Positions 11,788 to 59,857 of a stretch of DNA of 64,000 nucleotides are shown piece by piece. The stretch lies in assembly GCA_050181465.1 (NCBI GenBank), contig JBFXDD010000005.1, forward strand, positions 125,587 through 189,586, read 5' to 3'. The first letter of the stretch is position 1; each line of letters opens with the position of its first letter. The stretch is from Planctomycetota bacterium (GTDB lineage: Bacteria > Planctomycetota > UBA1135 > UBA2386). The translations under genes and the position numbers were made by a program. The notes beneath the pieces were generated by a model. It had not been told where the DNA came from, ran no database searches, and worked only from the letters and a program-made list of their open reading frames with translations.

Positions 11788-12408
11788 ATGCATCTGACGC
11801 TCACCGACAAGCAGCTCAAGGTGCTGCGCCTCTTCCGGGATTTTCGTGACGAGCACGGTCTGTCGCCGACTCTGGAGGAAGCTGCGCAGATCCTCGGGGT
11901 GAGCAAGATCACCGTGCACGAGCACCTGCGTCACCTGGAGGACAAGGGCGCCGTCCGTCGCGACAAGTCCAAGGCGCGTTCCGTTTCGATCCTCTACGAC
12001 CCCGATGAGCCGCGATCCCGCGGGACGCGGACGGTCAGCGAGCTCCCCATCTTGGGAGTGGTCGCCGCGGGTCGACCGATCGAGGCCGTCGAACACGCGG
12101 AGGTCGTGCCGCTGACGGATCTCGTCCCGACCGGCGATGACCACTATGTGCTGCGGGTCCAGGGCAAGTCGATGATCGAGGATCACATCGACGACGGCGA
12201 CTACGTGGTCATTCGACGGCAGCAGGCAGCGAAGAACGGGGACATCGTGGTTGCGATCGTGGACGGCGAAGAGGCGACGTTGAAGCGGTACTTCTTCGAG
12301 CACGGCAGGGTTCGACTCCAGCCCGCGAATTCAGCACTCACGCCGATTTACCCGGAGCGCTGTGAGATCCGCGGGGTCTTGCGCGGCGTGATCCGCAAAA
12401 TGCGCTGA
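11788..12408 (+). CDS. lexA: LexA repressor (SOS regulator, S24 peptidase)
   Basis: N-terminal winged-helix region (LTDKQLKVLRLFRDFRDEHGLSPTLEEAAQILGVSKITVHEHLRHLEDKGAV), cleavage-site region VAAGRPIEA, and the Ser/Lys catalytic pair (VQGKSMIED ... TLKRY). Confidence 0.92.
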   Translation: MHLTLTDKQLKVLRLFRDFRDEHGLSPTLEEAAQILGVSKITVHEHLRHLEDKGAVRRDKSKARSVSILYDPDEPRSRGTRTVSELPILGVVAAGRPIEAVEHAEVVPLTDLVPTGDDHYVLRVQGKSMIEDHIDDGDYVVIRRQQAAKNGDIVVAIVDGEEATLKRYFFEHGRVRLQPANSALTPIYPERCEIRGVLRGVIRKMR

Positions 12409-12453: not shown

Positions 12454-12642
12454 GAAGCCTGGACTGGACTCTTCGTGAACGTCTGATGCGATCGTCGCCA
12501 TTCTCGCCGCGCCACGTCGCTACGTCGGCTCCGCCCTGGCTGTGTAGCTACGGCTACGCTTCGGTCATCGCTCCACGCAGCCCCTTGCCGTCCATCGACC
12601 TGCGTCCATCTCGCGACGACGTTCACGAATAGTCCGGCCTAG
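12454..12642 (-). repeat. Nested-palindrome intergenic element, long form (copy G, reverse orientation)
   Basis: The reverse complement begins CTAGGCCGGACTATTCGTGAACGTCGTCGCGAGATGG and matches copies C and F along its length, including the inner GTAGC-NNNN-GCTAC hairpin. It lies between the lexA stop and the CDGSH gene start. The left boundary is approximate. Confidence 0.85.
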
Positions 12643-12651
12643 ACTGGGCGA

Positions 12652-12936
12652 ATGCCCGACGAACCCAATCGGCCAACCCCTCCCGAAGCACCCGGCCGAG
12701 TACAGAATCGACCCTTCGTGGTGTCGTGCTCACCCGGCAAGTACGCCTACTGCCAGTGCCAACGAAGCGCGCGATTCCCGTTCTGTGATGGAACTCACCG
12801 CGAATTGGTCGCCGCTGGAACCGACATCGGCCCCATGAAGGTGGTGCTCGACGACGAGAAGATGGTCGCCTGGTGCTGCTGCGGAAAGTCCGGGAAGAAG
12901 CCCTTCTGCGACGGATCTCACGCGCGAGCGGAGTGA
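12652..12936 (+). CDS. CDGSH iron-sulfur domain protein (two CDGSH motifs)
   Basis: Two copies of the C-x-C-x2-(S/T)-x3-P-x-C-D-G-(S/T)-H signature: CQCQRSARFPFCDGTH and CCCGKSGKKPFCDGSH. Confidence 0.85.
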   Translation: MPDEPNRPTPPEAPGRVQNRPFVVSCSPGKYAYCQCQRSARFPFCDGTHRELVAAGTDIGPMKVVLDDEKMVAWCCCGKSGKKPFCDGSHARAE

Positions 12937-19613: not shown

Positions 19614-19646
19614 GACAGGCCGGGGGCGCGCGGTTGCGATGGAATG

Positions 19647-19720
<74 letters not shown>

Positions 19721-20084
19721 TTGTTTTTCGCAAAGGCGAAAGAGATCGAAGATCCCTTCGCGAGGCTCCCGGGGTGACCGGCCCCGTGTGATATCCGTGC
19801 CAAAGGGGGAAAACAACCGGCGCGGGCCGCCGGCGGCACTCGGACCCCCCCCGCCGGTCGGGCTCCGACGAGGGCTCCGAACGGCAGCGAGGGGGAAACC
19901 GGTTACCGCGCCGAGGTGGGGTACTTGTGGTCCTTGAGCTCCTAGGCTTCAATCTGTCGTAGATTTCGTTGTCCGAACCGTGTCCTAGGTTGCTCTCCCC
20001 GAGCCGAGGCGCGGGCGGTTCGCAGCCCACGCAGGATCGACGACCCTCCGAGCCTGCGTCGGGAAGTGCGAACAGCAAGTCCGA

Positions 20085-21095
20085 GTGGCGAAATCCAAGC
20101 CGATGCTGCCGAATCGATCGCAAGACCAAGCAGAGAACCGAACGCCGTGGCGTTGGTCATGGCCGCTCATGACGGGCGCGCTCGCAATCGCCGCGTCGAT
20201 TGCATGGACGACAGCTCCGTGGATGATCACGGGAGGAGATGACGGTGGAGATGGAGCCGCGCCCAATGGAGTGCTCGCGGCAGCACCCGCCGCGATGCCG
20301 CAGGGCGGATTGGTCGACACTGACGGCGACCTCTTGCCGGACTGCGTGGAGTTGCCGCTGTTGCTGGATCCGAGTGCGGTCGATAGCGACAGCGACGGGA
20401 TCGACGACTTCCTCGCCGCCGCGCAGTTCCGGCGACCCTTCGACCATCCTGGTTCGCCGCGACCGATGGACGACGAGATGCGGGTGGTGGTCTCCGCCTC
20501 GGAGAACGTCGCCGGGGTCGAGTCGGTGTGGGTCCACTTCCTCTTCCGATTCGTCGGCGCGAATCTCGGCGAACTGCGTGGGATCACACCCTTCCTGGAT
20601 CTCTCGGGCACGCGCTACTCGTTTGCCAGCATGATCGGCGCCGGCGGCGTCGCCATGAGCACCCGAGTGGATCCCGTCGAGGGGCTCTTCTGCGTCGCCT
20701 CCTTCGAATTGCTCAATCTGGAAGCTTTGCGGAACATCCTGCCGTGCACGGTGGGTGCGACCGCGATGGTGGGCAGCCGACTGATCCATTCGGGGGCATA
20801 TCTTCAGGACGTCGCCGGGGTCGTCACGGTGCTCACCGCCGCCGACGACGACAAGGGAATGGTTGTCCCGCTCGATCCAGCTGCCACGGACGATCCCTTC
20901 TGGACCTCGGCGCGAATCTGCGTCATGCAGTTGGAGGTCATGTCCACGACGCCGAGCGGTTCGCTCTGCGAGGTGCGCAACGCGGAATGCATGTCGAGCG
21001 GTCGCCTAGCCTGTCCGCCGACTTGCCTGCAATCGCGGGGCTCGTCGATGTTCTTCCCCAACGGGTTGGGGACCGTGACCGGCAGCGGCCGCTAG
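20085..21095 (+). CDS. Secreted hypothetical protein with thrombospondin-type-3-like Asp-rich calcium-binding repeat
   Basis: Motif DTDGDLLPDCVELPLLLDPSAVDSDSDGIDDF. The likely signal peptide begins at MTGALAIAASIAW (ATG 20169), so the true start may be 20169 rather than GTG 20085. The TAG stop lies inside repeat copy H. Confidence 0.45.
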   Translation: MAKSKPMLPNRSQDQAENRTPWRWSWPLMTGALAIAASIAWTTAPWMITGGDDGGDGAAPNGVLAAAPAAMPQGGLVDTDGDLLPDCVELPLLLDPSAVDSDSDGIDDFLAAAQFRRPFDHPGSPRPMDDEMRVVVSASENVAGVESVWVHFLFRFVGANLGELRGITPFLDLSGTRYSFASMIGAGGVAMSTRVDPVEGLFCVASFELLNLEALRNILPCTVGATAMVGSRLIHSGAYLQDVAGVVTVLTAADDDKGMVVPLDPAATDDPFWTSARICVMQLEVMSTTPSGSLCEVRNAECMSSGRLACPPTCLQSRGSSMFFPNGLGTVTGSGR

Positions 21096-21213
21096 TCCGA
21101 AGGATTCGTGAGCATCTGCTGCGATCGCCGCAAGCCGCGCTCGGCGGCGGCGCTACGTGCCGAGCATCGACCTGTGGCGATCTCGCGACGACGTTTCCGA
21201 ATAGTTCGGGCTG
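21092..21213 (-). repeat. Nested-palindrome intergenic element, medium form (copy H, reverse orientation)
   Basis: The reverse complement CCAGCCCGAACTATTCGGAAACGTCGTCGCGAGATCGCCACAGGTCGATGCTCGGCA...CCGCCGCCGAGCGCGGCTTGCGGCGATCGCAGCAGATGCTCACGAATCCTTCGGACTAG aligns end to end with copy F, apart from an internal deletion of roughly 64 bp. Confidence 0.88.
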
Positions 21214-21428
21214 GGCATTCGCTCCGGCAGCTCGTTGCCCCGGTGGAGTCAGTGCGGCATTGAGTGCGGTATGAGCCCCTTGTACGCTCCAAGCCGCTCT
21301 CCTCGACGGACTTCGGTCAGATTCCCAATTCGGGCCGAGCCCCTCTCACGCGCGGACTTTCCACACCGTTACGGAACATCCGGATCGGTCCTGGTCGTCC
21401 GAACCGCCATCCGCTGCCGTCTCCACTC

Positions 21429-24550: not shown

Positions 24551-25132
24551 TCCGCGTCTCCTTGACGCATCGCCCCGTGGCCGCCGCTTCGCCACCACGG
24601 CTGGTGGTGCCGGTGTTCAAGAACTCCTGAGTGCCCTGCGGAGTCGCTGAGCAGAGTCTTCCCGGCTCGCGCGGCTGCGACGGCCGAGCCGACGGCGCGA
24701 CATCGGCGCATCCGAACTCTCTTCCAGGACTCTAGAGCGTCGGCTCACGACGATTCCCCACCTCGGAGCGCGCGTCCTGTCACCGCGAATCGGCCCCATT
24801 CCTCGCCTGTCGGGTGCCCCGTCGAACGTTCTCCACAGTTCGAACGACCTGAAGATCAGGTCGGTGACAAGCCACGAAACCAAGACCAACAACAAGACAT
24901 CGCTCGGCCAGGAGTCCGGCAAGCAGCGGCGGCTGCTCCCATCGACGGCGAAGCTCGCGAAACCTCGCAGCGACCCGCTCCTGAAGGCATTCGACGGTGT
25001 TCCCCAGGGGCCGTGCAGCTACATTCTCGGGGCTCGCTAGGCCGCACCCTCTCCCCTACCTCGAACCGTCGCGGGGAGAGGTTGGCGTGCTCCTCGAGCC
25101 TCCGTGCACCGGCCCTTTCCCCGCCCCAAGAC

Positions 25133-26226
25133 ATGAAGATCCTCTGCGATCGGCAAGAGTTGCAGGATGCCTTCGCCGCTGTCAGTGGCATCCCGCCCGT
25201 CAAGAGCACCAAGACGGTCCTCCAGAACGTCTTGCTGCGTGCCGAGCCCGAGCGTGTCGTGTTCCTCGCGACCGACAACGAGATGACCGCACGCGCCACG
25301 CTCCGGTCCGTGAAGGTATCGGAACCCGGCAGCATCCTGCTTCCCTGCCGAGAGACGAGTGCGCTGATTCGCGAACTGAGCGAGCCGACGGTCGCGATCA
25401 AGGCCAGTTCGGACCGCTGTCGGATCGAGAGTGGTTCCGGTTCGTTCGATCTCCTGAGTGCGGATGTCGATCAGTTCCCGCCGGAGCCCAAGCTGCAGGC
25501 CGAAGTCGAACTCGAGGTTTCGATGAAGGACATCCTGCAGATGTATCGGCGAACGTCCTTCGCCTGCGCCAAGGAAGAGACTCGTTACGCCATCAACGGT
25601 GTGCTCATCGATTTCGTCGACGGCTGTCTTCGGATGGTCGGCACCGATGGTCGTCGCCTCGCCCTCGCCTACACCAACATCGCCACCCAGGCTCCGCGCA
25701 TCCGAGCGGTGGTGCCGCTCCGCGCCCTGAATGCCTTGACCAAGGCGTTCGCCGACGACAGCGAAGCCATGTTGACGATCGGCATCGCGCGATCGCAGAT
25801 TCGCTTCGAAGCGGCTGGGAACCTGCTGGTTTCGCAGTTGCTGGACAACCGATTCCCCGACTACGAGCAGGTCATTCCGAAGGCCGCGGAGACGGTCATC
25901 GAAGTGGACCGACAGGAACTGGAACGCAACCTCCGCCGCGTTGCGGTCCTCGCTTCGAACGACATCCGCATGGTCGCTCTCGAATTCGCCGACGGCAATC
26001 TCGACATGCGCGCGGAGAGTTCCAGCGTCGGCAAGGCCCATCTCACGATGGCTGTCGACATGAAGGGCAAGCCCGTCAAGATGGGATTCAACCCCGACTT
26101 CCTCATCGAAGCCCTGCGCGTCTCCGAGTTGGACACGATTCGTATCGACGTCGTCGACGGTTCGGTTCCGATCAAGTGCGCGCTCGGTGAGTCCTATAGC
26201 TACATCCTCATGCCGATCGGCGCGTC

Positions 26227-26230
<4 letters not shown>
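25133..26230 (+). CDS. dnaN: DNA polymerase III beta subunit (sliding clamp)
   Basis: Start at ATG 25133 (MKILCDRQELQDAFAAVSGIPPVKSTKTVLQNVLL). It has typical clamp features (FLATDNEM, RYAINGVLIDF, MVGTDGRRLA, SYILMPI). Confidence 0.92.
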
Positions 26231-28975
<2,745 letters not shown>

Positions 28976-29009: not shown

Positions 29010-30470
29010 ATGGACCGATTCCGACAGGCCTTCGGTATCGCGACGATCGTCGCCGCGATCGCGCTCGGCGCGTGGTTCTTTCGTCTCTTGGCAGACGACG
29101 GCAAGTCGGGACTCTTCGAACTGCGGATCGAGTTTCGCGACGTTCGCGGACTCAAGTCCGGCGCTGATGTTCGGTACCGCGGAGTTCGCGTCGGCACGGT
29201 GACGAGCGTTTCGATCGGACTCGACGGCGAGAAGGGTGTGGTCTCCCTGCTGCTCGAACCCGATGGCTCTCGACTCGCGCGGCAGGCGAGTCGCTTCTGG
29301 GTCGTCGTCCCTCGCTTCGGCGGCCTCACATCGGGCGCGACCGGGCTCGACACCCTCGTGCGCGACGCCTACGTAGCGTTCCTCACCGAGGAGATCGAAT
29401 CGCCGGAACTCGCGGCCGGCAGCCTGCTCGCCGGGCTCGAGCGTCCGCCGGTCGACCGAGCCATGGCGGACCTCGATCCTATCGAACGCGGCGACTTGCT
29501 GATGACGCTCCTCGTTCTCGAGAACGGCGGCATCGATGCCGGCGCATCCATTCAGTTTCGAGGGATCTCCGTGGGCGAGGTGCGGCGCGTCGAACTCGCG
29601 TCGACCGGAACACACGTCGAACTCACGCTGCGAATTCGCGAACGATTCCGTACGACGGTCACGGACAAGACCAGCTTCTGGGTCGCCAAGCCACGCGTGT
29701 CGGGTGCCTTGCTGCGCGGCATCTCGTTGGACGATGTCGGCGCCTTGCTCAGCCCGTTCATCGGCTACCACAACCAGGACGAGCGCGGTGTGCCCGTTCC
29801 GGACGGCTATCGAGCGGTCGCGCGGGAGGAACGGCCCGACACCTCGGCCAGCGAGATCCCGGCCAGCGCTCGCGAGCAGCCGCCGACACAACCGCGACTC
29901 GCGTCGGGCGAGGTCATCGCCGTCGAAGTGATCTACGAGTGCACCGAGGAGGACTGGCTGAGTCCGAACGACGAGGAGAAGCGACGCGGCTCTGGCGTGA
30001 TGTTCGTCGATTCTCAGGGTCGCACGGCGGTGTTGACGGTGCGCAGCCTCTGTGACGGTGCCTCGTTCATGGCCGACACCTTCGGTGGTGTCGAGATCAA
30101 GAGTGAGGCGATTCGCGTGGTGGTCCCGAAGGTCGGCGTGTTTCGAGCCGGCCGCACCTGGATCGACCCGGCGGGCGGGGAGCTCGCGTTGCTGATCCTG
30201 GACGGCGTCCCACCCGACCTCCCGGCGACCTTGTCCTCCGCGATGGAGTTCGAGGCCGACGTCGACACTGCGGACGGGTTCTTGATCGCCGGTGCCGAAC
30301 ATCCTGCAACGCTCACCAACGGACTACCCTCGTTGGCGGATGCCCGCGGCGGGATCCTCGTGCGTGGCGGGACCGTGGTCGGACTCGTGGGCCGAAGCAC
30401 GTCGGATGCTGCCAAGCCGGCGCGAATCGCCCTGAGTTCGGTTCCGGCCGGGCTGAGGCCGCGGCCGTGA
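29010..30470 (+). CDS. MCE/MlaD-PqiB-like protein (N-terminal TM, two MCE domains) with C-terminal degenerate trypsin-like domain
   Basis: TM helix AFGIATIVAAIALGAWFF. MCE-type stretches are VRGLKSGADVRYRGVRVGTVTSV, RFWVVVPRFGGLTSGATGLDTLV, IQFRGISVGEVRRVEL and SFWVAKPRVSG. The C-terminal ~170 aa resembles a chymotrypsin fold (GSGVMFVDSQGRTAVLT, ELALLILDG, GGILVRGGTVVGLVG) but lacks the catalytic His and Ser. Confidence 0.7.
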   Translation: MDRFRQAFGIATIVAAIALGAWFFRLLADDGKSGLFELRIEFRDVRGLKSGADVRYRGVRVGTVTSVSIGLDGEKGVVSLLLEPDGSRLARQASRFWVVVPRFGGLTSGATGLDTLVRDAYVAFLTEEIESPELAAGSLLAGLERPPVDRAMADLDPIERGDLLMTLLVLENGGIDAGASIQFRGISVGEVRRVELASTGTHVELTLRIRERFRTTVTDKTSFWVAKPRVSGALLRGISLDDVGALLSPFIGYHNQDERGVPVPDGYRAVAREERPDTSASEIPASAREQPPTQPRLASGEVIAVEVIYECTEEDWLSPNDEEKRRGSGVMFVDSQGRTAVLTVRSLCDGASFMADTFGGVEIKSEAIRVVVPKVGVFRAGRTWIDPAGGELALLILDGVPPDLPATLSSAMEFEADVDTADGFLIAGAEHPATLTNGLPSLADARGGILVRGGTVVGLVGRSTSDAAKPARIALSSVPAGLRPRP

Positions 30471-31984
30471 GCGATTCCTCGCCGTCGCTCGCGATCGAAC
30501 TTCGCGACTTCGGCCTCGCCTACCGAGGACGGGCCAAGGAGCGGATCGTCTTCGTCGACGTCGATCTGAGCATTCCCTCCGGGTCCTTCCTTCTGCTCGT
30601 CGGCGAGAGCGGCTCGGGTAAGTCCACGCTGCTCCGCCTGTTGTGCGGGCTGTGGGAGAGTCGCGAGCCCGCTCCGCGAGTACGCGGCAGCGTGCGGGTG
30701 CTCGGCGAGAACGTCGGCGTGCACTATCCGCGTCGCCTCCGTGGTCAGGTGCAGGCGGTTCTGCAGGACGAGGGTCTGCTCGACGAACTTTCCCCGCGCG
30801 GCAACGTGGAACTCGCACTTCGCGTCGCGAAGCGATCGCCGACGCTCGCACTTGGCTTGCTCGCCCAGGTGGGCCTCGAACATCCTCCAGAACGCGTTCA
30901 CGAACTGTCCGGCGGCATGCGAAAGCGCGTGGCGGTCGCACGGGCGCTCGGCGGTGGCCCGAGACTCTTGTTCTTCGATGAGCCGACGGCCGGACTCGAT
31001 GCCGAATCGGCGCGCGCGATCGCGACGTTGTTGGTCGACACGCATCGTTCGACTGCGGGGGCCCGTACGACGATCGTGATCACGCATGACCTGAGAGCCT
31101 TCGAGGGCCTGCACGACGGAGTCCTCCACATCGATCCCGACTCGAAGTCGCTGCGATGGATTCCACCCGGAGAGCCGATCGTGGACGACGATCGGGACGT
31201 GGAGATCGAGGCGACCGTGGAGCCGCTCTTCGATCTCCGCGGTCTGCAAACGCTGCTCTACGGCGCGGCTGACTTCGGGGCGACGATCGGCAACGCGATC
31301 TGGCGGATCGTGCCGCGATGGCCCGAACTCGCTGCCGGAACCATTCGTCGCTACATCATCGAAGCTGCCGTCTTCGTCGTCATTGGGTGCGCGACCGTCG
31401 GCGGACTCGCGATGTTCTTCGCGCTGCGGAACAATCCGCTCGAAGGAGCCTTCACCGGAGCGCTGATCACCGGATCGGGGACCGTTCTCGTCGCGGTGCT
31501 CATCCCGCTCCTCGCCGGATTCTTCTTCACCGCGCGCGTCGCCGCCGGCGCGGCTGCGCGACTCGGAACGATGAAGCGCACCGGCCAGATCGATGCGCTA
31601 CGCATGATGGGGATCCGGCCGGTCGACTACTTGTTGATCCCGCTGCTCTGGGGTGTCTGTGTTGCACTGCCGATCGTCACTGCCTGCGGAGTCGTCTTTG
31701 CGGGACTGGCATCACTCTTCGCAGCACAACTCGTGAGCGGAATCTCGGCGTACGGATGGGCACGAGCCTTCATCGTGGAACTCGATCGAGGCGACATTCG
31801 TTTTGTTGCCTACAAGGCCCTGATCTCGGGCTTCCTCGTGGCCATCGTCACCTATTTCTTGGCCACGGGCCCGAAGCGGTCCGGTCTCGATGTGGGACGA
31901 GCGGTCAACGGCAGCATCGTGTTCGGGATGACCGCGGTCTTGCTGGTGCACGCCGCTCTGATCCTCCTGCATTACGCGCGCTAA
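30467..31984 (+). CDS. ABC transporter with fused ATP-binding (MlaF-like) and permease (MlaE-like) domains
   Basis: The GTG overlaps the MCE gene stop (GTGA). It has Walker A GESGSGKST, signature LSGGMRKRVAVARAL and Walker B LLFFDEP. A multi-TM MlaE-like C-terminal half follows (GSGTVLVAVLIPLLAGFFFTARVAAGAAARLGTMKRTGQIDALRMMGI). The TAA stop lies in repeat copy A. Confidence 0.75.
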   Translation: MSDSSPSLAIELRDFGLAYRGRAKERIVFVDVDLSIPSGSFLLLVGESGSGKSTLLRLLCGLWESREPAPRVRGSVRVLGENVGVHYPRRLRGQVQAVLQDEGLLDELSPRGNVELALRVAKRSPTLALGLLAQVGLEHPPERVHELSGGMRKRVAVARALGGGPRLLFFDEPTAGLDAESARAIATLLVDTHRSTAGARTTIVITHDLRAFEGLHDGVLHIDPDSKSLRWIPPGEPIVDDDRDVEIEATVEPLFDLRGLQTLLYGAADFGATIGNAIWRIVPRWPELAAGTIRRYIIEAAVFVVIGCATVGGLAMFFALRNNPLEGAFTGALITGSGTVLVAVLIPLLAGFFFTARVAAGAAARLGTMKRTGQIDALRMMGIRPVDYLLIPLLWGVCVALPIVTACGVVFAGLASLFAAQLVSGISAYGWARAFIVELDRGDIRFVAYKALISGFLVAIVTYFLATGPKRSGLDVGRAVNGSIVFGMTAVLLVHAALILLHYAR

Positions 31985-32076
31985 CCCGGAATCCTCGTGA
32001 ACGTCGTCGCGAGATCGACGCAGCCGGGCGCGAGTTGCGGCGATCGCAGCAGGCGTTCACGAGTGATCCGGGCCAG
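31981..32076 (+). repeat. Nested-palindrome intergenic element, short form (copy A)
   Basis: Sequence CTAACCCGGAATCCTCGTGAACGTCGTCGCGAGATCGACGCAGCCGGGCGCGAGTTGCGGCGATCGCAGCAGGCGTTCACGAGTGATCCGGGCCAG. The outer arms CCCGGA..CTCGTGAACG and CGTTCACGAG..TCCGGG are inverted repeats. Confidence 0.92.
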
Positions 32077-32810: not shown

Positions 32811-32903
32811 CTAGCCCGGATGACTCGTGAACGTCGTCGCGAGATCGCCGCCGGGCGCGAGTTGCGGCGATCGCAGCAGACGGTCACGAATGATCCGGGC
32901 TAG
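32811..32903 (+). repeat. Nested-palindrome intergenic element, short form (copy B)
   Basis: Sequence CTAGCCCGGATGACTCGTGAACGTCGTCGCGAGATCGCCGCCGGGCGCGAGTTGCGGCGATCGCAGCAGACGGTCACGAATGATCCGGGCTAG. CTAG is present at both ends. The right arm overlaps the last codons and the stop of the convergent tatA-family gene. Confidence 0.92.
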
Positions 32904-33366
32904 GGGTTTGCGGGTCCGCCTCTGCGGCCGAGCCCGTCACCGAGGCGCGCCGCTCCCGTTCACCAGCAGGTTCGTCGGTCGCGTGGTCGGTCGTCGACTC
33001 GTGCCCTTCGACGGCGGCGCGCTCCGCGGCCAAGCGTTGCGACTCTGCCTCGATGACCGCTTGGTGGTCGTCGCCTGGGTCGCGATCGTCGGGGTGTTCC
33101 GGATGATCGTCGGCCATCACGTGATCGACCAGGCGCTTGGGATCCAGCGCCTGCCGCGGCGCATCCAATGCACTGCGCATGTCGCGCATGCCGGACCGCA
33201 CCTCGCGCAGGCTCTCGTCACGATCCAGTTCGCGCCGGAAGTCATCGAATCCCCGGCGTAGGTTCGCCACGGTGCGCCCGACTTGCCGCCCGACCTCCGG
33301 AAGTCGCCTCCCGTAGATCATGATCCCCACGAAGAGGATCATCACCCACTCGCCGGTGCTCGGCAT
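32884..33366 (-). CDS. tatA: Twin-arginine translocase TatA/TatE/TatB-family protein with long acidic C-terminal tail
   Basis: Start at ATG 33366. The sequence MPSTGEWVMILFVGIMIYGRRLPEVGRQVGRTVANLRRGFDDFRRE gives the canonical TM helix, hinge and amphipathic helix. At 160 aa it is long for TatA. Confidence 0.75.
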   Translation of the reverse strand: MPSTGEWVMILFVGIMIYGRRLPEVGRQVGRTVANLRRGFDDFRRELDRDESLREVRSGMRDMRSALDAPRQALDPKRLVDHVMADDHPEHPDDRDPGDDHQAVIEAESQRLAAERAAVEGHESTTDHATDEPAGERERRASVTGSAAEADPQTPSPDHS

Positions 33367-33526
33367 GCTGAGGAAGGCGAGGGGTAGGGGGAGTGAAGTC
33401 ACGACGGTTCATCGTCGGCTGCCGTTGCCGTGTGTCAACCGGGCGGGCGGGTCGCTAACCTGTTCGGCCCCAATGTCCGCCCGCGCACCATTCCGGTTCG
33501 CGCGTACCGGCGGAACCTGATCGCCC

Positions 33527-47757: not shown

Positions 47758-47941
47758 CTAGCCCGAACTATTCGCGAACGTCGTCGCGAGATCGACACAG
47801 GTCGATGCCTGCCAAGGAGCTACGACGGTCCACGACCGAAGCGTAGCCGCAGCTACGCGGCCAGGGAGGAGCCGTCGTTGCGACGCAGCTCGGCGCGAGT
47901 TGTGGCGATCGCAGGAGACGTTCACGAGTAATCCGGGCTGG
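47758..47941 (+). repeat. Nested-palindrome intergenic element, long form (copy C)
   Basis: The sequence runs CTAGCCCGAACTATTCGCGAACGTCGTCGCGAGATCGACACAGGTCGATGCC...GCGTAGCCGCAGCTACGC...GCGCGAGTTGTGGCGATCGCAGGAGACGTTCACGAGTAATCCGGGCTGG. It has the same ends and core as the short form plus a ~90-bp internal module. Confidence 0.9.
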
Positions 47942-48020: not shown

Positions 48021-48116
48021 TTAGCGCGGACGACTCTTGAACGTCGTCGCGAGATCGACGCAGCCGGGCGCGAGTTGTGGCGATCACAGCAGACGTTCAC
48101 GAGTCGTCCGGGCTGG
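48021..48116 (+). repeat. Nested-palindrome intergenic element, short form (copy D)
   Basis: Sequence TTAGCGCGGACGACTCTTGAACGTCGTCGCGAGATCGACGCAGCCGGGCGCGAGTTGTGGCGATCACAGCAGACGTTCACGAGTCGTCCGGGCTGG. The arm variant GGACGAC...GTCGTCC changes on both sides, which is compensatory. Confidence 0.92.
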
Positions 48117-48368: not shown

Positions 48369-50297
48369 GTGACGAGCGAAGCTAACCTCCTCAAGTTCGC
48401 ACTTGCCGTCGGCGTGCTACTGCTGGTCGCCCTCGTCTCATGGATCGTCCTATCCGTGGACGCTGAGCGAACGGGAAGTATGGAATCCAGCCGAGCTTTG
48501 CGTTCGCAAGCGAACAACCACTCACGAGATGGAGTGAGCGGCATTGCGAACCCCGGGCTGGAACGCGCTCGTGTGAAGGTGGGGCAACTCACGGTTCGCG
48601 TTCTCGATTCGAAGTCGGCACCGCTCTCCACCGCCCAAGTGGCCGTCAGGTCGATGGGGCTGGAGGACGACTGGGAACTGCTCGGTGACGCCGGTGACGG
48701 TCGGTTCGCACTGCCGCCGCTGTCTCGATTCGAAGGGAATCTCGTCCAAGTTCAGGTCGTCGCTCCCGGGTTCCTGCCGCATCTGAGCCGGCACCAGGTT
48801 CCTGTGTCATCGAGTCCACAAGACGTCATCGAAGTCGTGCTGTTGGAGCCCGCCGTTCTGGATGTGATGGTTCGGTATTCCGACGGATCGCCCGCCACCG
48901 GGGTCCGGGTTTGCCTGCTGCCGACTCCTGGCAACTTGCGGGTCGAAGAGATCTCTCCCGGACTGTTGCTGGAGCGAGCGATCCTCAGGCGGCCGACTGA
49001 GGACGGAACCGTGTCGTTCACTGGCCTGCAGCCTGACGAACGATACGTGTGTGCCTGTCTTGCCGCGCACGACGACGGAACAACTCGCTCACCCGCGCTG
49101 GAGGTGCGTTCTCTCCTGTTGGCGGAGGGGCGCAACTCCGAGCCGATCCGACTGCCAGCGACCCGCATTCGGGGCGCATTCCTCTCTGCAATTCGGGCGG
49201 AGCGAGGTGAAGCAACACTGCTGTCCATCACCGGTGTGTCCAAAATGAATCGCCCACCGAGCTCCTCGCTCAGTGGGAAGACCATTAGCGAGCTCCTGCA
49301 GACGGATCTTGGCTCGAACGGCAGCTTCGAGTTCCTCGTTCATGAGCCGGGTCGATACGCCATATTGGCCTCCCGAAGCGCGGACAGAGACGTCTGGGTT
49401 GGCGCCTGGGACGTGGACGTGACGAAGCTCGGCATCGACATCGACCTCGGTCAGTTGTCCTCTGCGTCAAACTCCTCGGTACCGGTCCGCGTGGATCTCG
49501 ACGGTCTGGTCCCCGCCTCAGCAATCGAGGACTCGAGATTGGCGGTCAGAGTCGCCACCGGGAGGACGGGCGATCCGAGGTCCTCCGAGGATCTCTACTC
49601 GATCGGATTCCACATGGAGTTGGCTGCCGGCGTGCTCACGACAATTCACGGTCTACCGAACTTGACCGTGTTCTTTCATGCAAGAGAAGTCATCACTCCA
49701 GCGAAGATCGATCCCATTCCGCTGGCGATGCTCCCAAGCTGGAAGTGGAGCGAAGAACAATCTTCGCCGGCCACGCTGGTGGTATCGAGAGATCGTCGCC
49801 CGCGTGTTTCCTTCGTCGTGCATGGGGCGGATGTGCAACCGACTCAAGTCACGGGCTTGGTCATTCATCGAGACGACACTCGCAAGTCCGTCGTGATCTC
49901 GGCGGAAACGGTCACATGGAATCGCGAGGAGCAGGTGCTTCATGCCTTCTGCCGAGCGGACAGCGGCAGGTATAGGGCAGTGTTTCGTTGGAGGGCGGGA
50001 GAGGCGTTCGTCACGGCCGCCGGCGAGTTCGATGTCTTCGACGCGGACGTCTCGTCGGATGTCCGTCCAGCCGCATGCTCGATGGTCGAGTTCAGCGTGG
50101 ACACGGTGAACATCAGTACGCTTCCGGTTCTCAGCTTCGGCTTCGTGGGTAGCGATGAAGTCATCTCGGCGGTCCGGCCGTGGTCCGATGGGATCTATCG
50201 GATCGAGAGCGTCCCGGAGCATCAGTCCATCTGGGTCTACGGCTTGCCCAAGGGCGATTCGATTCGAACGGCCGATCGACGGATCACGTCTCGGTGA
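48369..50297 (+). CDS. Membrane-anchored protein with carboxypeptidase-regulatory-like repeats, function unknown
   Basis: GTG start at 48369. The N-terminal TM helix is KFALAVGVLLLVALVSWIVLSV. Repeats follow of the type LTVRVLDSKSAPLSTAQVAVRS...GDGRFALPPL. The gene is bracketed by repeat copies D and E. Confidence 0.5.
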   Translation: MTSEANLLKFALAVGVLLLVALVSWIVLSVDAERTGSMESSRALRSQANNHSRDGVSGIANPGLERARVKVGQLTVRVLDSKSAPLSTAQVAVRSMGLEDDWELLGDAGDGRFALPPLSRFEGNLVQVQVVAPGFLPHLSRHQVPVSSSPQDVIEVVLLEPAVLDVMVRYSDGSPATGVRVCLLPTPGNLRVEEISPGLLLERAILRRPTEDGTVSFTGLQPDERYVCACLAAHDDGTTRSPALEVRSLLLAEGRNSEPIRLPATRIRGAFLSAIRAERGEATLLSITGVSKMNRPPSSSLSGKTISELLQTDLGSNGSFEFLVHEPGRYAILASRSADRDVWVGAWDVDVTKLGIDIDLGQLSSASNSSVPVRVDLDGLVPASAIEDSRLAVRVATGRTGDPRSSEDLYSIGFHMELAAGVLTTIHGLPNLTVFFHAREVITPAKIDPIPLAMLPSWKWSEEQSSPATLVVSRDRRPRVSFVVHGADVQPTQVTGLVIHRDDTRKSVVISAETVTWNREEQVLHAFCRADSGRYRAVFRWRAGEAFVTAAGEFDVFDADVSSDVRPAACSMVEFSVDTVNISTLPVLSFGFVGSDEVISAVRPWSDGIYRIESVPEHQSIWVYGLPKGDSIRTADRRITSR

Positions 50298-50373: not shown

Positions 50374-50469
50374 CTAGCCCGGATCACGCGTGAACGTCGT
50401 CGCGACATCGACGCAGCCGGGCGCGAGTTGCGGCGATCGCAGTGGATCTCTACGAATCATCCGGGCTAG
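50374..50469 (+). repeat. Nested-palindrome intergenic element, short form (copy E)
   Basis: Sequence CTAGCCCGGATCACGCGTGAACGTCGTCGCGACATCGACGCAGCCGGGCGCGAGTTGCGGCGATCGCAGTGGATCTCTACGAATCATCCGGGCTAG. CTAG is present at both ends. Confidence 0.92.
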
Positions 50470-50497
50470 AACAGCCACCGCCTTGGGGTTTCCCGAC

Positions 50498-51829
50498 ATG
50501 CGAACTCGACTTCAGCAACAGCTCCTTCGTTTCGGATCGTGCCTGTTACTCGGGATGGCTGCCGGCCGCGCTCAGGACTGGGTCGCCCTCGACCAGGCCT
50601 GCGCTCGAGCCGCTGAGGCCGGATCCACGTTCTACGTGGTGGTCGCAGGCCGGAACACCGAACCGTTCATCCGCACAGCCGGCGAATTGCCTCGCGCGGC
50701 GCAGAACGGAACTCCGTTGCTTCCGCTCGGCGACGTGTCGCGAGTGCTGCTCGCCAGTCTCTTGCGTGCCGTTGCCGGCGACCAACGTATCGACATCGAC
50801 AAGCCGATCGTGCAGGAGGAGGACGCGACTCTCTGGGCACTTGGCCCACCGTTTACTCGATGGACCTGGAGAGAGGTCGTCAACGGGACTGCCGCTGGCG
50901 CTCTTCCAGCATGGCGATTCCTCGGGTCGGGAGACCGGGCACGCAGCTCGGCCGAGTTCCTTGCCGCGCACGCCCTGAAGGATGAGACCGCACGCTGGCA
51001 TCGAGTCGCGAGCAACGAATCGAGCCAGGTACCCGTCGCCGTTCTGCAGGCTGCACTCGAGCGTCGAACGGGGAAGAGTCTCGCAGCCTGGGTCCGCGAT
51101 GCGGGTGCGGCAGCAGGGTTGCCGAGTGCGTGTCTGAGCGACTCCGGGCTCGGCGGGTGTCCGAACGCCGAAATGGATGCCGCGCACGACTTGACGTTGA
51201 CCCCGACGGATCTTCCGCGCTTCCTGCGGGCGATGCTCGATCTCGACTTCAAGCTGAATGTGCACGGTCTGGAGCGGGTCTTCGGCCTGCAACCGACGGA
51301 CTTCGATTTCAGCATCTTCGGGAAGGGCTGCGATCGTCATGCACACGTAGATCGGTGGCGCGGCGCAACTTGCCGCGTGTCGACTTCGTTCGCCGGCGAC
51401 CACGTGTTCTTCTCCTGGTCCGGTGATTCCCGGGAACCAGATTTTCTCGAGGCGTTCCTGAGCGATCTTGACGAGGGCGATGTCCTGTACACGGGAGCAG
51501 TCGGCTACGGCGAACCTCGAGATCCGGAGGCAACCCATGGGATCGACGGCGAACAGGTTGCAGAGTTGAAGGATCTCGACGGCACGATCCGTCTCAGTCT
51601 CTCGGCTCCCGGCGATCAGCCCTGCGTTCGACTCGGCCCTCGCGAGGAGGTGATTCCTCTGACCCGGATCAGGGAGGATCTCTTTGCCGAGTTCGGACTG
51701 GGGGACACCAAGCGTGGTGTGTTGGACCTGCGCTTCGACGACGGTCGCTGGATCGGCACTCTGAGCACCTACGACAATCCACGCTACTGGCTGCCCTGGC
51801 GCATCACGTTCGAACGTGCCGGCCGTTGA
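50498..51829 (+). CDS. Secreted hypothetical protein, possibly a degenerate beta-lactamase/serine-hydrolase-like fold
   Basis: Start at ATG 50498 (MRTRLQQQLLRFGSCLLLGMAAGRAQ signal). LLPLGDVSRVLLASLLRAV resembles the G-S-x-S-K-x-x-TA region of class C/DD-peptidase-like hydrolases, but reads DVSR rather than SxxK. The upstream part of the tracked ORF begins inside repeat E. Confidence 0.4.
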   Translation: MRTRLQQQLLRFGSCLLLGMAAGRAQDWVALDQACARAAEAGSTFYVVVAGRNTEPFIRTAGELPRAAQNGTPLLPLGDVSRVLLASLLRAVAGDQRIDIDKPIVQEEDATLWALGPPFTRWTWREVVNGTAAGALPAWRFLGSGDRARSSAEFLAAHALKDETARWHRVASNESSQVPVAVLQAALERRTGKSLAAWVRDAGAAAGLPSACLSDSGLGGCPNAEMDAAHDLTLTPTDLPRFLRAMLDLDFKLNVHGLERVFGLQPTDFDFSIFGKGCDRHAHVDRWRGATCRVSTSFAGDHVFFSWSGDSREPDFLEAFLSDLDEGDVLYTGAVGYGEPRDPEATHGIDGEQVAELKDLDGTIRLSLSAPGDQPCVRLGPREEVIPLTRIREDLFAEFGLGDTKRGVLDLRFDDGRWIGTLSTYDNPRYWLPWRITFERAGR

Positions 51830-52179
51830 GCGACACTGACGTCGCCGACCACACTCGATACAGCGCCGTGCTTCGTTGGAGAACCGGTGAGGCGTTCGTT
51901 ACGGCCACCGTCGAGTTCGAGGTCTTCGACGAAGACGTCTCCTTGGATGTCCATTCAGCCGCAGGTTCGATCGTTGAGTTCAGCGCGGACCCGGTGAACA
52001 ACCGTGCGTTTCCGATTCTCAGCTTCGGCTTCGTGGGTAGCGATCACGTCTTGGCGAGTCGACGGAGCAGACACACGATTCGCTGCGGGCCCGGCGTTGT
52101 GAACCACTCGGCGGTCGGCAATCACCCATCCACGCGGCGCGCCGCGGTCTTCCACGCGCGCCACTCGCGGGTGAGATAG
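51826..52179 (+). pseudogene. Fragment homologous to the C-terminal part of the 48369..50297 gene (truncated paralogue remnant)
   Basis: The fragment reads HTRYSAVLRWRTGEAFVTATVEFEVFDEDVSLDVHSAAGSIVEFSADPVNNRAFPILSFGFVGSD. The full gene reads SGRYRAVFRWRAGEAFVTAAGEFDVFDADVSSDVRPAACSMVEFSVDTVNISTLPVLSFGFVGSD. DNA 51857-52044 aligns with 49969-50156, and the last ~29 bp are identical. Only ~60 aa are homologous. The TTG start overlaps the upstream stop, and the tail overlaps the convergent gene. Confidence 0.6.
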
Positions 52180-56866: not shown

Positions 56867-58780
56867 ATGACTCTTCGGAGCCTGCTCGTCGGCACCATTC
56901 TCATGGGGATGGTGGCGGTGCAGTATTCCCCTGCTCTCGAGCCACCCAGAGCAGCACAGCGCGCGGCGGATTCTCAGCATCTCGTGACGGCGCATCGCGT
57001 GGCGGTGATTCTCCGGCGCGCCGACGGCACGCCCTGGGCGGACGCGCACGTCCATGCTCGAGCGGGCTACTGGACGCCCGGCTGGGTGCTGCCCGGCTCG
57101 CCGCAGGCGGACGGCAAGAGCGACGCGAACGGTCGCTGCATCCTGTCGCTGGCGCCGTGCACGGAACACTGGATCTGGGCGGAGTCGGCGACGGACGACG
57201 GGAAGCGATGGATCGCGGATGCGGTCTCCTTGCGAGCCGAGAAGTCGGTGCGATTGGTCGCGCGACCCGATCCGGTCGGACCCACGATTCTTCGGCTGCG
57301 AAGCCAAGAAGACCGTTGCGCACGGGTGCGCGTTCGCGATCGCGCGTTGGGCTGGGAGCGGGAGTTCGAGGGGCTGCCCACCGAGTTGCGACTCGAAGCG
57401 CCGCCGTCGCCGTGGCTCGAAGTCGTGGTGTTCGATCCGGAGAGCCGGCCGAGTCTGCTGGTGGATGTTCAGAACGACGGCCGCGAGCACGTGATCGAGC
57501 CGGAGAGCACGCGTGTGCAGGAGGTCGTCGTCGTCGCGCCGCCGGCCGGCATCGATCCTGCGGATCTTCGCTTGCAGCTCTGGCATCGTGGCGAGACCTT
57601 CGATCTCGCCGCCTTCGATGCGCAGGGTCGCACCCGTTTCGACTTCGATCGCTGGCAGGGGCTCGTCGACGGCCGCGGGCAGTGCGCGAAGCAGTCGGGA
57701 AGTGCCTATGTGGTGAACGGTGACGCGATCGACCCGGTGGTGATCGACCTCGTCTGGTCGGACTACCGGCGCCCGGACACGACTCTCCCGATCCCGGTTC
57801 ATGTGCGAGCGCGCGAGCGCACGGGCGGGTGGTTTCGCATCCAACTCGGCGGGGAGGAGCTCGACCACGCCTCACTGCGCCGAGCGGTCGAGCTCGAGCA
57901 CGCGCACGGCGAACGGCGGAATCCGATCCGGTTTGCCTTGGACGAGCGCCTCGCTGGTCGTCGCGTGCCGTTGTCGATGAGCTTGAAAGAGTTCCCGCTC
58001 TGGTTGACCGGAGCCGCGCGGAGCGACGCAGCGCTAGCACGACAATGGCAGCCTTGGCTGGACGGAGTCGTGCCGATCCTCCTCGATGTTCCGCCGGATT
58101 CGGCGAGCCCGCCGCAGATCGACCTCGATCTGGCGACGGACTTCGTTCGCTGCGAACTGACCTTCGTCGGTGTCGATCGATTGCCGCTCGCAGACCAGTT
58201 CGTGCGCTGGTGGGTGCGACCGTCCGATCACGCCTGGCGCATGGATGTGCGCACCGATCCGAAGGGTGTCGCGCGGTTTCTCCTCCCGAAGAAGCTGACG
58301 AGTGACGCCTGGTGTTGGCATGTCTCGCCGCAGGGCTGGACCAGCTTCCTGCTCAATGAGCTTGCGATCGCCGAAGTCGCGAGGCGGACCGGCGTTCTTC
58401 GGGCCGAGATCCAGATGCTGCCGGTGCATCGGGTCCGCCTGGCCTGCGCCGAGCCGATGGACGTCACGCTGGCCGTGCGGTTCGACGACCAGCGATTGGA
58501 TCCGATTCCCGCTGCGGCCGTCTCCGACCGACCCGAGTGGATCGCCGTCGCTCGTCCCGAGAACGCGCTCGCTGGTTTCCGCGAGATCTACGAGTTCCGC
58601 ACGTACCGGCTGCCCGACGACCTGATCGCGGTCCCCGCACTGCCGCTGCGCAGCGTGATCCACCTCCGTTCACGGGTGACCGACGGCCAGCGACCCGAGG
58701 GCTTCCGGCGCCCGACCAACTTCGCGATCGAGGCATCGGTCGAGCCGCAAGTTCTCGAGTTCGTGCTGGAGCAGAGGTGA
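56867..58780 (+). CDS. Secreted or membrane-anchored hypothetical protein (637 aa)
   Basis: Hydrophobic N-terminus (SLLVGTILMGMVAVQ). At least one carboxypeptidase-regulatory-like segment is present (VAVILRRADGTPWADAHVHA...DANGRCILSL). It starts 4 bp after scpA, where scpB would normally be, but does not resemble ScpB. Confidence 0.45.
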   Translation: MTLRSLLVGTILMGMVAVQYSPALEPPRAAQRAADSQHLVTAHRVAVILRRADGTPWADAHVHARAGYWTPGWVLPGSPQADGKSDANGRCILSLAPCTEHWIWAESATDDGKRWIADAVSLRAEKSVRLVARPDPVGPTILRLRSQEDRCARVRVRDRALGWEREFEGLPTELRLEAPPSPWLEVVVFDPESRPSLLVDVQNDGREHVIEPESTRVQEVVVVAPPAGIDPADLRLQLWHRGETFDLAAFDAQGRTRFDFDRWQGLVDGRGQCAKQSGSAYVVNGDAIDPVVIDLVWSDYRRPDTTLPIPVHVRARERTGGWFRIQLGGEELDHASLRRAVELEHAHGERRNPIRFALDERLAGRRVPLSMSLKEFPLWLTGAARSDAALARQWQPWLDGVVPILLDVPPDSASPPQIDLDLATDFVRCELTFVGVDRLPLADQFVRWWVRPSDHAWRMDVRTDPKGVARFLLPKKLTSDAWCWHVSPQGWTSFLLNELAIAEVARRTGVLRAEIQMLPVHRVRLACAEPMDVTLAVRFDDQRLDPIPAAAVSDRPEWIAVARPENALAGFREIYEFRTYRLPDDLIAVPALPLRSVIHLRSRVTDGQRPEGFRRPTNFAIEASVEPQVLEFVLEQR

Positions 58781-58966
58781 GCCACCCTGACTATTCGTGA
58801 ACGTCGTCGCGAGATCGCCGCAGGTCGATGCTCGGCATGGAGCTACGTCGTGCGACGACCGAGGCGTAGCCGTAGCTACGCTGCCAGGGAGGAGCCGCCG
58901 CCGCCGCGCCGCCGCCGAGCGCGGCTTGCGGCGATCGCAGCAGATGTTCACGAATAGTTCGGGCTA
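58781..58966 (+). repeat. Nested-palindrome intergenic element, long form (copy F)
   Basis: The sequence runs ...CTGACTATTCGTGAACGTCGTCGCGAGATCGCCGCAGGTCGATGCTCGGCA...GCGTAGCCGTAGCTACGC...GAGCGCGGCTTGCGGCGATCGCAGCAGATGTTCACGAATAGTTCGGGCTAG. The left terminus has diverged, so that boundary is approximate. The right terminal TAG is the stop codon of the convergent gene. Confidence 0.88.
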
Positions 58967-59857
58967 GATCCCCGCGTCGCGCGGCATGCCGGCAAGTTCG
59001 AGCGCGGCCCGCAGCGTGTCGGCGTCGGCGCGTGCGAAGTCGGCCTCGTCGTCGTAGCACCATCGCCCAAAGAGCTCGGCGGCACCCAACGCCTGCGGGA
59101 AGTGCGGCGCGGGCAACTCGACCGGTCGCGGGCAGAACCACGTCGTGCGGCCGTCATCGATCAGGTTGAAGGCCGCGGTGGCACGCAGTGCCGCGAGTTC
59201 CAGCGCGACTGCCAGGCGCTGGTCGCGCTCGCCGTCGATCCGCAGCAGCAGCAGCGGGCACGGTGCCTGGGCTCGTGCGAGGCGGACATTCGGGAAGCGG
59301 GCGAGAACGGCGCTGCTCGCGGCTTCGTACTCGAGGCCGGCGAGGAATCCGGTTCGGTCGCCGAGCAGGTGGCCGTGACTCCGCACGATCGAGGCTGCGG
59401 CGCCGACGGTGTTGAGCAGGAAGGTCCCCTCGACCGCCGCGGCGATCGACGAACCGTTGGTCAGCAGTGCGAGATCGGGCTCGCGACGGAACTCGGCAGC
59501 CCACAGGATCGCTGCGCTCGCCGCGAAGGGGTGCCGATTCGGCGTCATCACCACGCCCTCGCCGCGCCAGATCGCCTCAGCGGCGATGATCTCGGCGCCG
59601 TGGTCGCGCGCGATCGCCGGGCGACTCGCCAGCGGCCGACCACGGCGGTTGCGACGCTCCGGCAGCCAACAGAGTTCGACCGCGCGATCGAAGAGTTCGA
59701 GCGACCGCACCGCCGCAGGACGGAAATCGCCGCTCGGAAGGCGGTCGGGCGGTGCGACGCTCATTTGGCGGCCGGATTGCGAGGGGTCGACACCACGGAT
59801 AGCCTCCCCTGTCGATCCGACGCTGTCGAGATCGACCTGCCCCTCCGCGTCCGACAT
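58964..59857 (-). CDS. Hypothetical protein, possibly a HIT-superfamily (GalT/Apa2-like) nucleotidyltransferase or phosphorylase
   Basis: VMTPNRHPFAASAAILWA resembles the NK(F/Y)P...H.LL segment, and IVRSHGHLLG resembles the H-x-H-x-hydrophobic nucleotide-binding motif of that branch. The assignment is weak. Confidence 0.3.
   Translation of the reverse strand: MSDAEGQVDLDSVGSTGEAIRGVDPSQSGRQMSVAPPDRLPSGDFRPAAVRSLELFDRAVELCWLPERRNRRGRPLASRPAIARDHGAEIIAAEAIWRGEGVVMTPNRHPFAASAAILWAAEFRREPDLALLTNGSSIAAAVEGTFLLNTVGAAASIVRSHGHLLGDRTGFLAGLEYEAASSAVLARFPNVRLARAQAPCPLLLLRIDGERDQRLAVALELAALRATAAFNLIDDGRTTWFCPRPVELPAPHFPQALGAAELFGRWCYDDEADFARADADTLRAALELAGMPRDAGI

Follow-up and report, generated by a model that had tools for sequence, protein, structure and literature searches.

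The stretch of DNA considered here, referred to as the window, is 64,000 nt long and comes from a Planctomycetota metagenome-assembled genome (MAG; locus tags AB7I19_047xx); its GC content is 0.61-0.69. Among its genes are lexA (11788..12408, plus strand), a CDGSH gene (12652..12936, plus strand), dnaN (25013..26230), gyrB (26522..28975) and recQ. Situated in intergenic DNA are eight copies of a palindromic repeat element, and these form the subject of this report. A preliminary description, made from the letters alone, had proposed a dispersed family in three size classes with shared ends. Alignment and a covariance model show the family and its sizes at the places claimed: three copies are long (184-186 nt), four are short (93-96 nt) and one is of medium length (123 nt). 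Two of the classes are therefore real, but the third consists of a single intermediate copy, termed H. The copies are as follows.

12459..12642, minus strand: copy G, long, 184 nt, between lexA and the CDGSH gene
21092..21214, minus strand: copy H, the single medium copy, 123 nt, similar to copies F and Z with a 64-nt internal deletion
31981..32076, plus strand: copy A, short, 96 nt
32811..32903, plus strand: copy B, short, 93 nt, with a junction 3 nt shorter
47758..47941, plus strand: copy C, long, 184 nt, scoring 175.8 bits with the covariance model
48021..48116, plus strand: copy D, short, 96 nt, 79 nt downstream of C
50374..50469, plus strand: copy E, short, 96 nt
58782..58967, plus strand: copy F, long, 186 nt, with an eroded left terminus and a GCC-rich run as the 3′ arm of stem P3

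Copies C and D share one intergenic region downstream of recQ. A ninth copy, Z, is long and lies directly to the left of window position 1 on the minus strand (L045:2-137). This gives nine copies in ∼64 kb, or about one per 7 kb. The left-arm 21-mer GAACGTCGTCGCGAGATCGAC has eight matches in the window at three or fewer mismatches (0.05 expected) and the right-arm 31-mer has five (0 expected). The terminal inverted-repeat pattern has 14 matches against 0.04 expected, and these are 14 of the 16 possible arms and nothing else. The covariance model recovers exactly the same eight copies.

Every size class folds into one long hairpin (z = -5 to -7), and the long form is the short form with an apical extension. 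The proposal of a stem-extension series thus holds once each class is folded. The best-preserved copy, found outside the window at locus L012, folds into a 184-nt hairpin that is nearly perfect (-136 kcal/mol, z = -14), with a perfect outer stem of 27 bp and the apical hairpin GCGUAGC-CGUA-GCUACGC. The full-length unit of ∼184 nt is built of an outer stem, a pair of basal conserved blocks and the stems P2 and P3, along with purine-rich internal loops and the apical hairpin. In copy C, which carries all internal parts, the features are located as follows.

47774..47794, plus strand: left basal conserved block, GCGAACGTCGTCGCGAGATCG
47793..47800, plus strand: left 8-nt direct repeat, CGACACAG
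47819..47828, plus strand: 5′ arm of P3, GCTACGACGG, which pairs with 47872-47881
47841..47858, plus strand: inner (apical) hairpin, GCGTAGC-CGCA-GCTACGC
47872..47881, plus strand: 3′ arm of P3, CCGTCGTTGC
47881..47888, plus strand: right 8-nt direct repeat, CGACGCAG
47906..47924, plus strand: right basal conserved block, CGATCGCAGGAGACGTTCA, an imperfect inverted copy of the left block

The two basal blocks, TGAACGTCGTCGCGAGATCG and CGATCGsAGCAGAyGwTCA, are invariant in sequence, inverted and imperfectly paired. When segments of the element are ranked by conservation, the left block is the best conserved of the family. The internal loops carry the purine-rich motifs GGCAAGGA and GAGGA, together with AAGGAAG. 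The element terminates in CTAGCCCGG and CCGGGCTAG, or in AGAGCC and GGCTCT. In P3, copy C and the copy at locus L036 differ from the other copies by an A/T to T/A swap on both sides of the stem. In copy F, the P3 3′ arm is replaced at 58888-58925 by the GCC-rich run GCCGCCGCCGCCGCGCCGCCGCCG; part of this run is common to F, H and Z, and these three therefore form a sub-lineage. Small palindromes are also present. TCGCGA lies within the left block, GATC occurs in both arms, and the right arm (47905-47912 and equivalents) has a perfect 8-nt palindrome, which is palindromic in both of the clades described below (GCGATCGC versus CCGATCGG).

A total of 16 copies was studied, 12 of the Planctomycetota type and four from a remote, divergent clade. 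Three full long copies of the Planctomycetota type were found elsewhere by blastn on the scan loci, at L012, L036 (MAG JBFWUX01) and L041. A 19-mer scan of genome collections gave at least 39 loci; 33 of 39 were chance or coding matches, and the real copies among the matches listed are those at L012, L036, L008, L010, L018 and L021. A 23-mer scan of metagenomes gave four loci, with L041 the only real copy; L043 is a chance match. The four remote-clade copies were detected by profile search (nhmmer) over all fetched loci and lie in MAG contigs from the deep subsurface. Their loci were sampled only through the shared 19-mer.

L010:5639-5818, minus strand: full-length copy, QZJD01, labelled Desulfobulbus sp. 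SURF_48
L018:1527-1706, minus strand: full-length copy, QZJD01, labelled Desulfobulbus sp. SURF_48
L021:7820-7933, plus strand: partial copy, QZJD01, labelled Desulfobulbus sp. SURF_48
L008:1-114, minus strand: partial copy, QZIR01, labelled Desulforudis sp. SURF_60

The full remote copies are 178-180 nt long and are colinear with the Planctomycetota long form save for one 3-nt and one 1-nt gap. Their GC content (0.49-0.50) is below that of the host contigs (0.56-0.60). The left block TGAACGTCGTCGCGAGATCG is identical at 20 of 20 nt between the consensus sequences of the two clades, and the right block, CGATCGsAGCAGAyGwTCA, is kept as well. Other blocks common to both clades are GGCAAGGA, CsGrAAGCGUAGC (the 5′ arm of the inner hairpin), GAGGA and GACGCCG. 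Spacing is also maintained: in all long copies of either clade the apex motif starts 46 nt past the left block, and the right block stands at +110 or +111 versus +114. The stems, by contrast, are wholly different between the clades while complementarity is kept. The outer stem reads CTAGCCCGGACTATTCG in one clade against AGAGCCTCTTGCAAAA in the other, with the outermost 16 bp differing completely; a GC-rich P2 in one corresponds to an A/U-rich P2 in the other; and P3 is GCUACGUCG/CGACGUAGC in the Planctomycetota clade and GUGAAAUCG/CGAUUUCAC in the remote clade. G-U pairs that are invariant in one clade are A-U pairs in the other. The remote-clade termini, GAGCCTCTTGCAAAAT, presumably resemble ISL3-type inverted repeats, a likeness taken here as a lead.

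RNAalifold, applied to a MAFFT alignment, gives a structure of 65 pairs. Of these, 27 have changes on both sides, and 89.8% of cells are paired. Shuffled alignments give 14.2 ± 2.5 covarying pairs, none of 500 reaching 27, and slid controls give 6-10. A covariance model built from six Planctomycetota long copies only finds the remote copies over its full length (L010, E = 4e-12; L018, E = 5e-10). A further candidate clade at L001:4469-4659, which scores 40.7 bits with the covariance model, was rejected as an unrelated palindrome with microsatellite arms.

The relation between the size classes can be read from their junctions. The short form corresponds to the long form minus a segment between two imperfect 8-nt direct repeats, one repeat copy included. 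The left repeat, CGMCRCAG, follows GAGAT and the right repeat, CGACGCMG, precedes CyGGGCGCGA; the two agree at only 5-7 of 8 positions, the best-preserved copies included. Loss of a segment between such repeats is characteristic of slippage or recombination at a hairpin's base. The junction is identical in A, D and E, and in B it is off by 3 nt. From the identity in A, D and E it follows that either the short form spread after one deletion or the deletion recurs at this hot spot. The left half of the ∼90-nt module present only in the long form, CAGGTCGATGCTCGGC, pairs with a right-arm sequence, GCCGTCGGGCGCGACTTG, that short copies also carry, and in these copies GCCGTCGGGCGCGACTTG is left poorly paired. 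The module has no inverted ends of its own, and searches of the window, 54 further loci and viral contigs did not find it alone. Short copies have so far turned up in no genome but that of the window. The ∼180-nt long architecture is common to the remote clade; thus the long form is ancestral and predates the short form, which appears to be derived. The preliminary description had envisaged, as one of two possibilities, an element within an element, and the age of the long architecture speaks against this.

Copy H has a different history. As had been stated, it aligns with F at both ends and lacks ∼64 nt, including the inner hairpin; F-specific variants are present on both sides of the gap, and GCGCCGCCGCCG is common to F, H and Z. 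There is no repeat at the junction. H is best regarded as a one-off deletion of an F/Z-like copy. Random decay, which had been discounted for the size series, therefore does have a part in it, H being a single copy with a repeat-free junction.

The inner hairpin was described correctly for C, for F (GCGTAGC-CGTA-GCTACGC) and for G, where there is one mismatch (GCTACAC). It is intact in five of the seven long Planctomycetota copies, but in Z it is degenerate (TCGTAGC-TGTA-GCCAAGC). Within the Planctomycetota copies the stem displays no compensatory change, and its 18-nt segment ranks 25-35 of 165 in conservation. In the remote clade the inner hairpin is found at the same distance, +46 nt from the left block, and here the apical stem does show compensatory changes: CGUAGC/GCUACG in L010 becomes CGGAGC/GCUCCG in L021 and L008, with L018 intermediate. 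The inner hairpin is thus a conserved, structured feature, on the strength of the cross-clade comparison; the Planctomycetota copies by themselves give it weak backing. The four short copies have no inner hairpin and are still multi-copy, with one junction at four loci. Since they persist there, the hairpin is not needed for persistence or spread. Its proposed conservation accordingly stands across clades, but the hairpin is dispensable for the short form and is not the best-conserved part.

The copies switch strand at the dnaN-gyrB region, where the cumulative G-C curve has its minimum (26 kb). Z, G and H lie left of dnaN/gyrB on the minus strand, whereas copies A to F lie right of it on the plus strand. 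In all nine copies the top strand would be on the lagging-strand template if the origin is near dnaN. The probability of a single flip among nine copies is ∼0.035, and the interval in which the flip occurs makes up 17% of the window and contains dnaN. Copy G is antisense to both lexA and the CDGSH gene, and H, located between two plus-strand genes, is likewise antisense to both; transcription thus does not explain the orientation. Of 13 full copies, 11 have a top strand that folds better than the bottom one. This advantage fits strand-specific folding as RNA or as single-stranded DNA alike.

Copy F provides evidence of insertion. The gene upstream of F (56867..58780) has orthologues in three relatives, with 74-66% protein identity. 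In these relatives (L050, L051 and L054) the gene and its convergent neighbour are 4 nt apart, TGAgcgaCTAGatccc, and the F site is empty. In the window, a 183-nt element stands directly before that CTAG, where the convergent gene (58964..59857, minus strand) has its stop codon. Because the site is empty in the relatives, copy F is an insertion. No family copy was found in ∼45 kb from the relatives (loci L050-L054, some overlapping). Homologues of the protein encoded at 48369..50297 were sought for empty sites of C, D and E, and only the protein itself was found.

A CTAG-like tetranucleotide occurs at both ends in nine of 11 copies; it is palindromic and is part of the stem. At four copies, A, H, F and L036, a neighbouring gene takes its stop codon from the terminal CTAG or CTAA. 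The terminal CTAA of A (31981-31984) supplies the TAA stop of 30467..31984 (plus strand) and the terminal CTAG of H (21092-21095) the TAG stop of 20085..21095 (plus strand). The right-terminal CTAG of F is at 58964-58967, and the overlap in L036 is at L036:2970-2973. In F, the only empty-site comparison, there is a single CTAG without duplication, and the left end is eroded. The remote-clade copies show no CTAG flanks and no clear duplication. Both clades share the termini AGCC and GGCT. The CTAG ends fit equally well with a TA duplication, a CTAG duplication, or insertion in the middle of CTAG by an element AG...CT. In A, C, D, G, H and L036, the tetranucleotide that is not CTAG is mostly CCAG or CTGG, one transition away at the central TA; this may represent directional decay of CTAG in a GC-rich genome.

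Copies also affect how open reading frames (ORFs) are read in their vicinity. Long ORFs open within the left arm at 31997, 32827, 48037 and 50390, with GTG as the start codon in copies A, B and E and TTG in copy D. As these run into downstream genes, they lead to false N-terminal extensions in ORF lists, such as 50390..51829. The longest ORF at 48369..50297 has 642 aa versus 587 aa for the NCBI protein. The ORF 32884..33402 (minus strand), which encodes a TatA-like protein, ends inside copy B.

These repeats are a new family of a known kind, the foldback non-autonomous repeats. Somewhat more probably than any other account, and with a little better than an even chance of being correct, they are REPIN- or MITE-like (miniature inverted-repeat transposable element) long hairpins that are recognised as a folded single strand. 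Three observations point to recognition of the folded strand: the stems are free to change while pairing, blocks and spacing are kept; the top strand folds better; and all nine copies share an orientation relative to the putative direction of replication. By this account the element would be recognised and propagated as a folded strand, most likely single-stranded DNA on the lagging-strand template, as REPINs and other substrates of HUH transposases are, with the basal block pair as its likely recognition site. The 93-96-nt form would arise by deletion of the apical ∼90 nt between the two 8-nt direct repeats, with the outer stem and the invariant blocks retained. Thereafter, either this form would have spread to four or more loci, or deletion through the repeats would have happened more than once. 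The apical part, with the inner hairpin, would be conserved and yet not be needed for the short form to persist.

REPINs provide the best match with respect to inverted blocks, sequence-free stems, density, intergenic sites, presence/absence, strand asymmetry and deletions that keep the base. REPINs are hairpin-forming doublets of REP sequences, mobilised by RAYT tyrosine (HUH) transposases whose gene is single-copy and flanked by the same REPs. They have two invariant inverted regions and a spacer defined by its length and hairpin capacity, in which compensatory changes are common, and in strain SBW25 there are two spacing classes, 71 and 110 bp (PMC3116915). The palindromic REPIN unit of ∼70-110 or more nt resembles the present element in its two highly conserved inverted regions near the ends and in a less conserved spacer whose length and hairpin capacity are kept by compensatory changes; in the present family, covarying stems separate two inverted, conserved basal blocks. 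Intergenic location, high copy number, discrete spacing classes and degenerate derivatives are also shared. The present unit differs in being longer (184 nt), with three further conserved internal blocks and an apical hairpin, and in having a conserved block that is identical in two very divergent host lineages. No RAYT (Y1/HUH) gene was seen among the ∼50 window ORFs scanned. The E. coli REP consensus presumably shares CCGGATG-N3-CGTGAACG with the left arm, which we take as a lead only.

Other elements are recognised by structure rather than by stem sequence, and in a strand-specific manner. The ends of IS200/IS605 elements and the attC sites of integrons are of this type, and they share with the present family a bias in orientation that places the active strand on the lagging-strand template. 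In attC sites a variable terminal structure gives rise to length classes, and the sites are positioned right after stop codons. IS200/IS605 ends, however, are two separate short subterminal hairpins and not a hairpin of the whole element. The attC cores RYYYAAC and GTTRRRY are absent here, and the neighbours are housekeeping genes in conserved synteny, with no cassette arrays.

Several points weigh against recognition of a REPIN-like folded strand. REP sequences are defined as short (20-40 nt) imperfect palindromes with an unpaired GTAG or CGTC tag at one end (PMC3733652), and the present element lacks such a tag followed by an 8-13-bp palindrome. Its blocks, TGAACGTCGTCGCGAGATCG and CGATCGsAGCAGAyGwTCA, are not self-contained stem-loops, and the only GTAG is inside the paired apical stem. 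The origin is placed only by dnaN-gyrB and a weak local skew minimum; the window has no dnaA and no DnaA-box cluster, a single near-match being no more than chance, and between 1 and 12 kb the sign of the skew is wrong. In essence, a single deep split underlies the covariation, by which RNA and single-stranded DNA are not separable. Errors in binning may lie behind the taxonomic labels of the other MAG contigs (Dehalococcoidia, Desulfobulbus, Desulforudis). Pfam analysis of ∼50 ORFs revealed no transposase in the window, and none is linked to the element elsewhere. Lastly, a DDE transposase with duplication of TA or CTAG would account for the CTAG-like ends as well.

It is possible, and we put this forward tentatively, that the ∼180-nt hairpin represents an undescribed class of structured single-strand element, either a single-stranded DNA substrate of a dedicated HUH or other recombinase at the replication fork or a functional non-coding RNA. 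The five blocks, the stem lengths and the apical hairpin are kept in distantly related bacteria, and genomes are colonised very densely. Were this reading right, the short form would be a minimal mobilisable core and the basal block pair a directly testable recognition site. A full-text literature search found no paper that contains the core sequence of the element. Collections of plasmids and phages gave no match to it, and scans of viral contigs for the left block and the inner hairpin gave no real copy, only coding chance matches or none.

A classical MITE would be a deletion derivative of an insertion sequence (IS), moved in trans by a DDE transposase (IS630/Tc1-like or IS5-like) at (C)TA(G). 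TA or CTAG would be duplicated, the long terminal inverted repeats would give the hairpin as a side effect, and internal deletions would give the size classes. The family does have terminal inverted repeats (27 bp and perfect in L012; 14 of 16 arms detected in the window), a presence/absence polymorphism at F, an exclusively intergenic location, and CTAG-like ends in most copies with a single CTAG at the empty site; stop codons containing TA look like targets. The Correia elements of Neisseria (CREE/NEMIS) combine the same properties. They have internal-deletion size classes of 153-157, ∼105 and 71-73 bp, a TA target, insertion polymorphism between strains, an extra integration host factor (IHF) site in the long form that is absent from the short form, and transcript hairpins that are RNase III substrates (PMC2649163). 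The resemblance extends to foldback structure, inverted ends, intergenic location, discrete sizes produced by internal deletion and an extra site in the long form. It concerns organisation only, for Correia as for ERIC elements below, the consensus sequences not having been directly compared. The Correia sequence is unrelated and limited to one genus, and its core is no continuous covarying hairpin with conserved loops; in the present family, no TA duplication is shown and orientation looks linked to replication.

The classical MITE account is nevertheless rather doubtful. The outermost 16 bp, which a DDE enzyme needs for cutting, are the very part that differs completely between the clades, and what is conserved or covaries are the subterminal blocks and interior stems; complementarity in P2 and P3 is not required by a DDE mechanism. 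There is no duplication at F, and in the remote clade none is clear and CTAG flanks are missing. The nine-of-nine orientation bias is unexpected for a cut-and-paste element with symmetric ends. A parent insertion sequence with matching ends and a transposase was found neither in the window nor in the fetched loci.

The hairpin may instead be kept as an RNA that serves the host or the element itself, mobility accounting merely for its distribution. Candidate roles would be a processing or stability element (RNase III, RNase E) in 3′ untranslated or intergenic regions, or an RNA that titrates a protein through GGA and Shine-Dalgarno-like loops. Conserved loops with covarying stems, and the replacement of G-U by A-U pairs between clades, are the pattern of a structured RNA. 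The top-strand RNA is the more stable one in 11 of 13 copies, six of the eight window copies and the copies in L012 and L036 are sense and just downstream of a gene, and GGCAAGGA, GAGGA and AAGGAAG lie in internal loops. Correia and ERIC elements act likewise (PMC2649163). We consider the RNA account unlikely, since G and H are antisense to both neighbouring genes and short copies, without any apical motif, are as common as long ones. G-T pairs stabilise single-stranded DNA too, so strand asymmetry does not discriminate. In Rfam 15 no family reached the gathering threshold, with only tRNA detected in the window, and at E up to 10 nothing meaningful was found for C, L012 and L010.

ERIC elements are conserved across genera, which is consistent with a constraint by RNA structure. 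Their long forms have been described as insertions at specific internal sites; here, the short form is a deletion. Like the present family, the ERIC or IRU elements of enterobacteria are imperfect palindromes over their whole length, intergenic, and found in three size classes with shared ends (RU-1, 127 bp; RU-2, 168 bp; RU-3, 103 bp) (PMC2759123), but their sequence and hosts are unrelated.

Insertion of a ∼90-bp hairpin element into the loop of a ∼95-bp palindrome, the element within an element of the preliminary description, would make the 8-nt repeat (CGMCRCAG, CGACGCMG) that flanks the extra segment a target-site duplication and would suit the discrete length difference, but it is highly improbable, as no more than 5-7 of 8 positions match between the repeats, the module has no inverted ends and does not occur alone in the window, in 54 further loci or in viral contigs, its left half pairs with a right-arm sequence that is orphaned in the short form, and the complete long architecture is present in the remote clade, where no short form was seen.

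Other candidates were rejected. A small protein gene (MNVVARS...) is not compatible with a block that is identical at the nucleotide level across lineages while the stems change wholesale, nor with stop codons in every frame of some copies; the translated element, in the frame from the left-arm GTG, gave no hits as a query. An intrinsic terminator was dismissed for want of a T-run after the hairpin, and 6S RNA, attC, retron, omega and bridge RNAs on the grounds of copy number, architecture or absent core motifs.

Two further features of the locus are unrelated to the family. A 192-nt direct repeat with 84% identity is found at 49971-50162 and 51859-52050, one copy in the 3′ part of a gene with a CarboxypepD_reg domain and the other in a small ORF after the next gene. 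L050, a contig of the closest relative, is syntenic with window 52-64 kb; beyond the syntenic block, at 18947-20914, it has cas2 and a Cas4/Cas1 fusion gene.

Among the Logan short-read contigs from this organism, L044 stops 3 nt into F, and two others begin within copies, L046 in the right arm of F and L045 in Z. Such ends within copies suggest that the genome has many more. As the repeats break such contigs, public assemblies of short reads show almost nothing of the family.

It is common for a palindromic repeat to have size variants; the deep conservation, the orientation and the practical effects are what is unusual here. Copies break short-read assemblies, provide flanking genes with stop codons and provide ORF callers with false GTG starts. 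The deep conservation amounts to a natural dissection of the element, in which the basal block pair is enough for persistence and spread, and the apical parts are otherwise conserved. If the orientation holds genome-wide, the family would represent new, dense, single-strand-targeted mobile DNA outside the Proteobacteria and Cyanobacteria.

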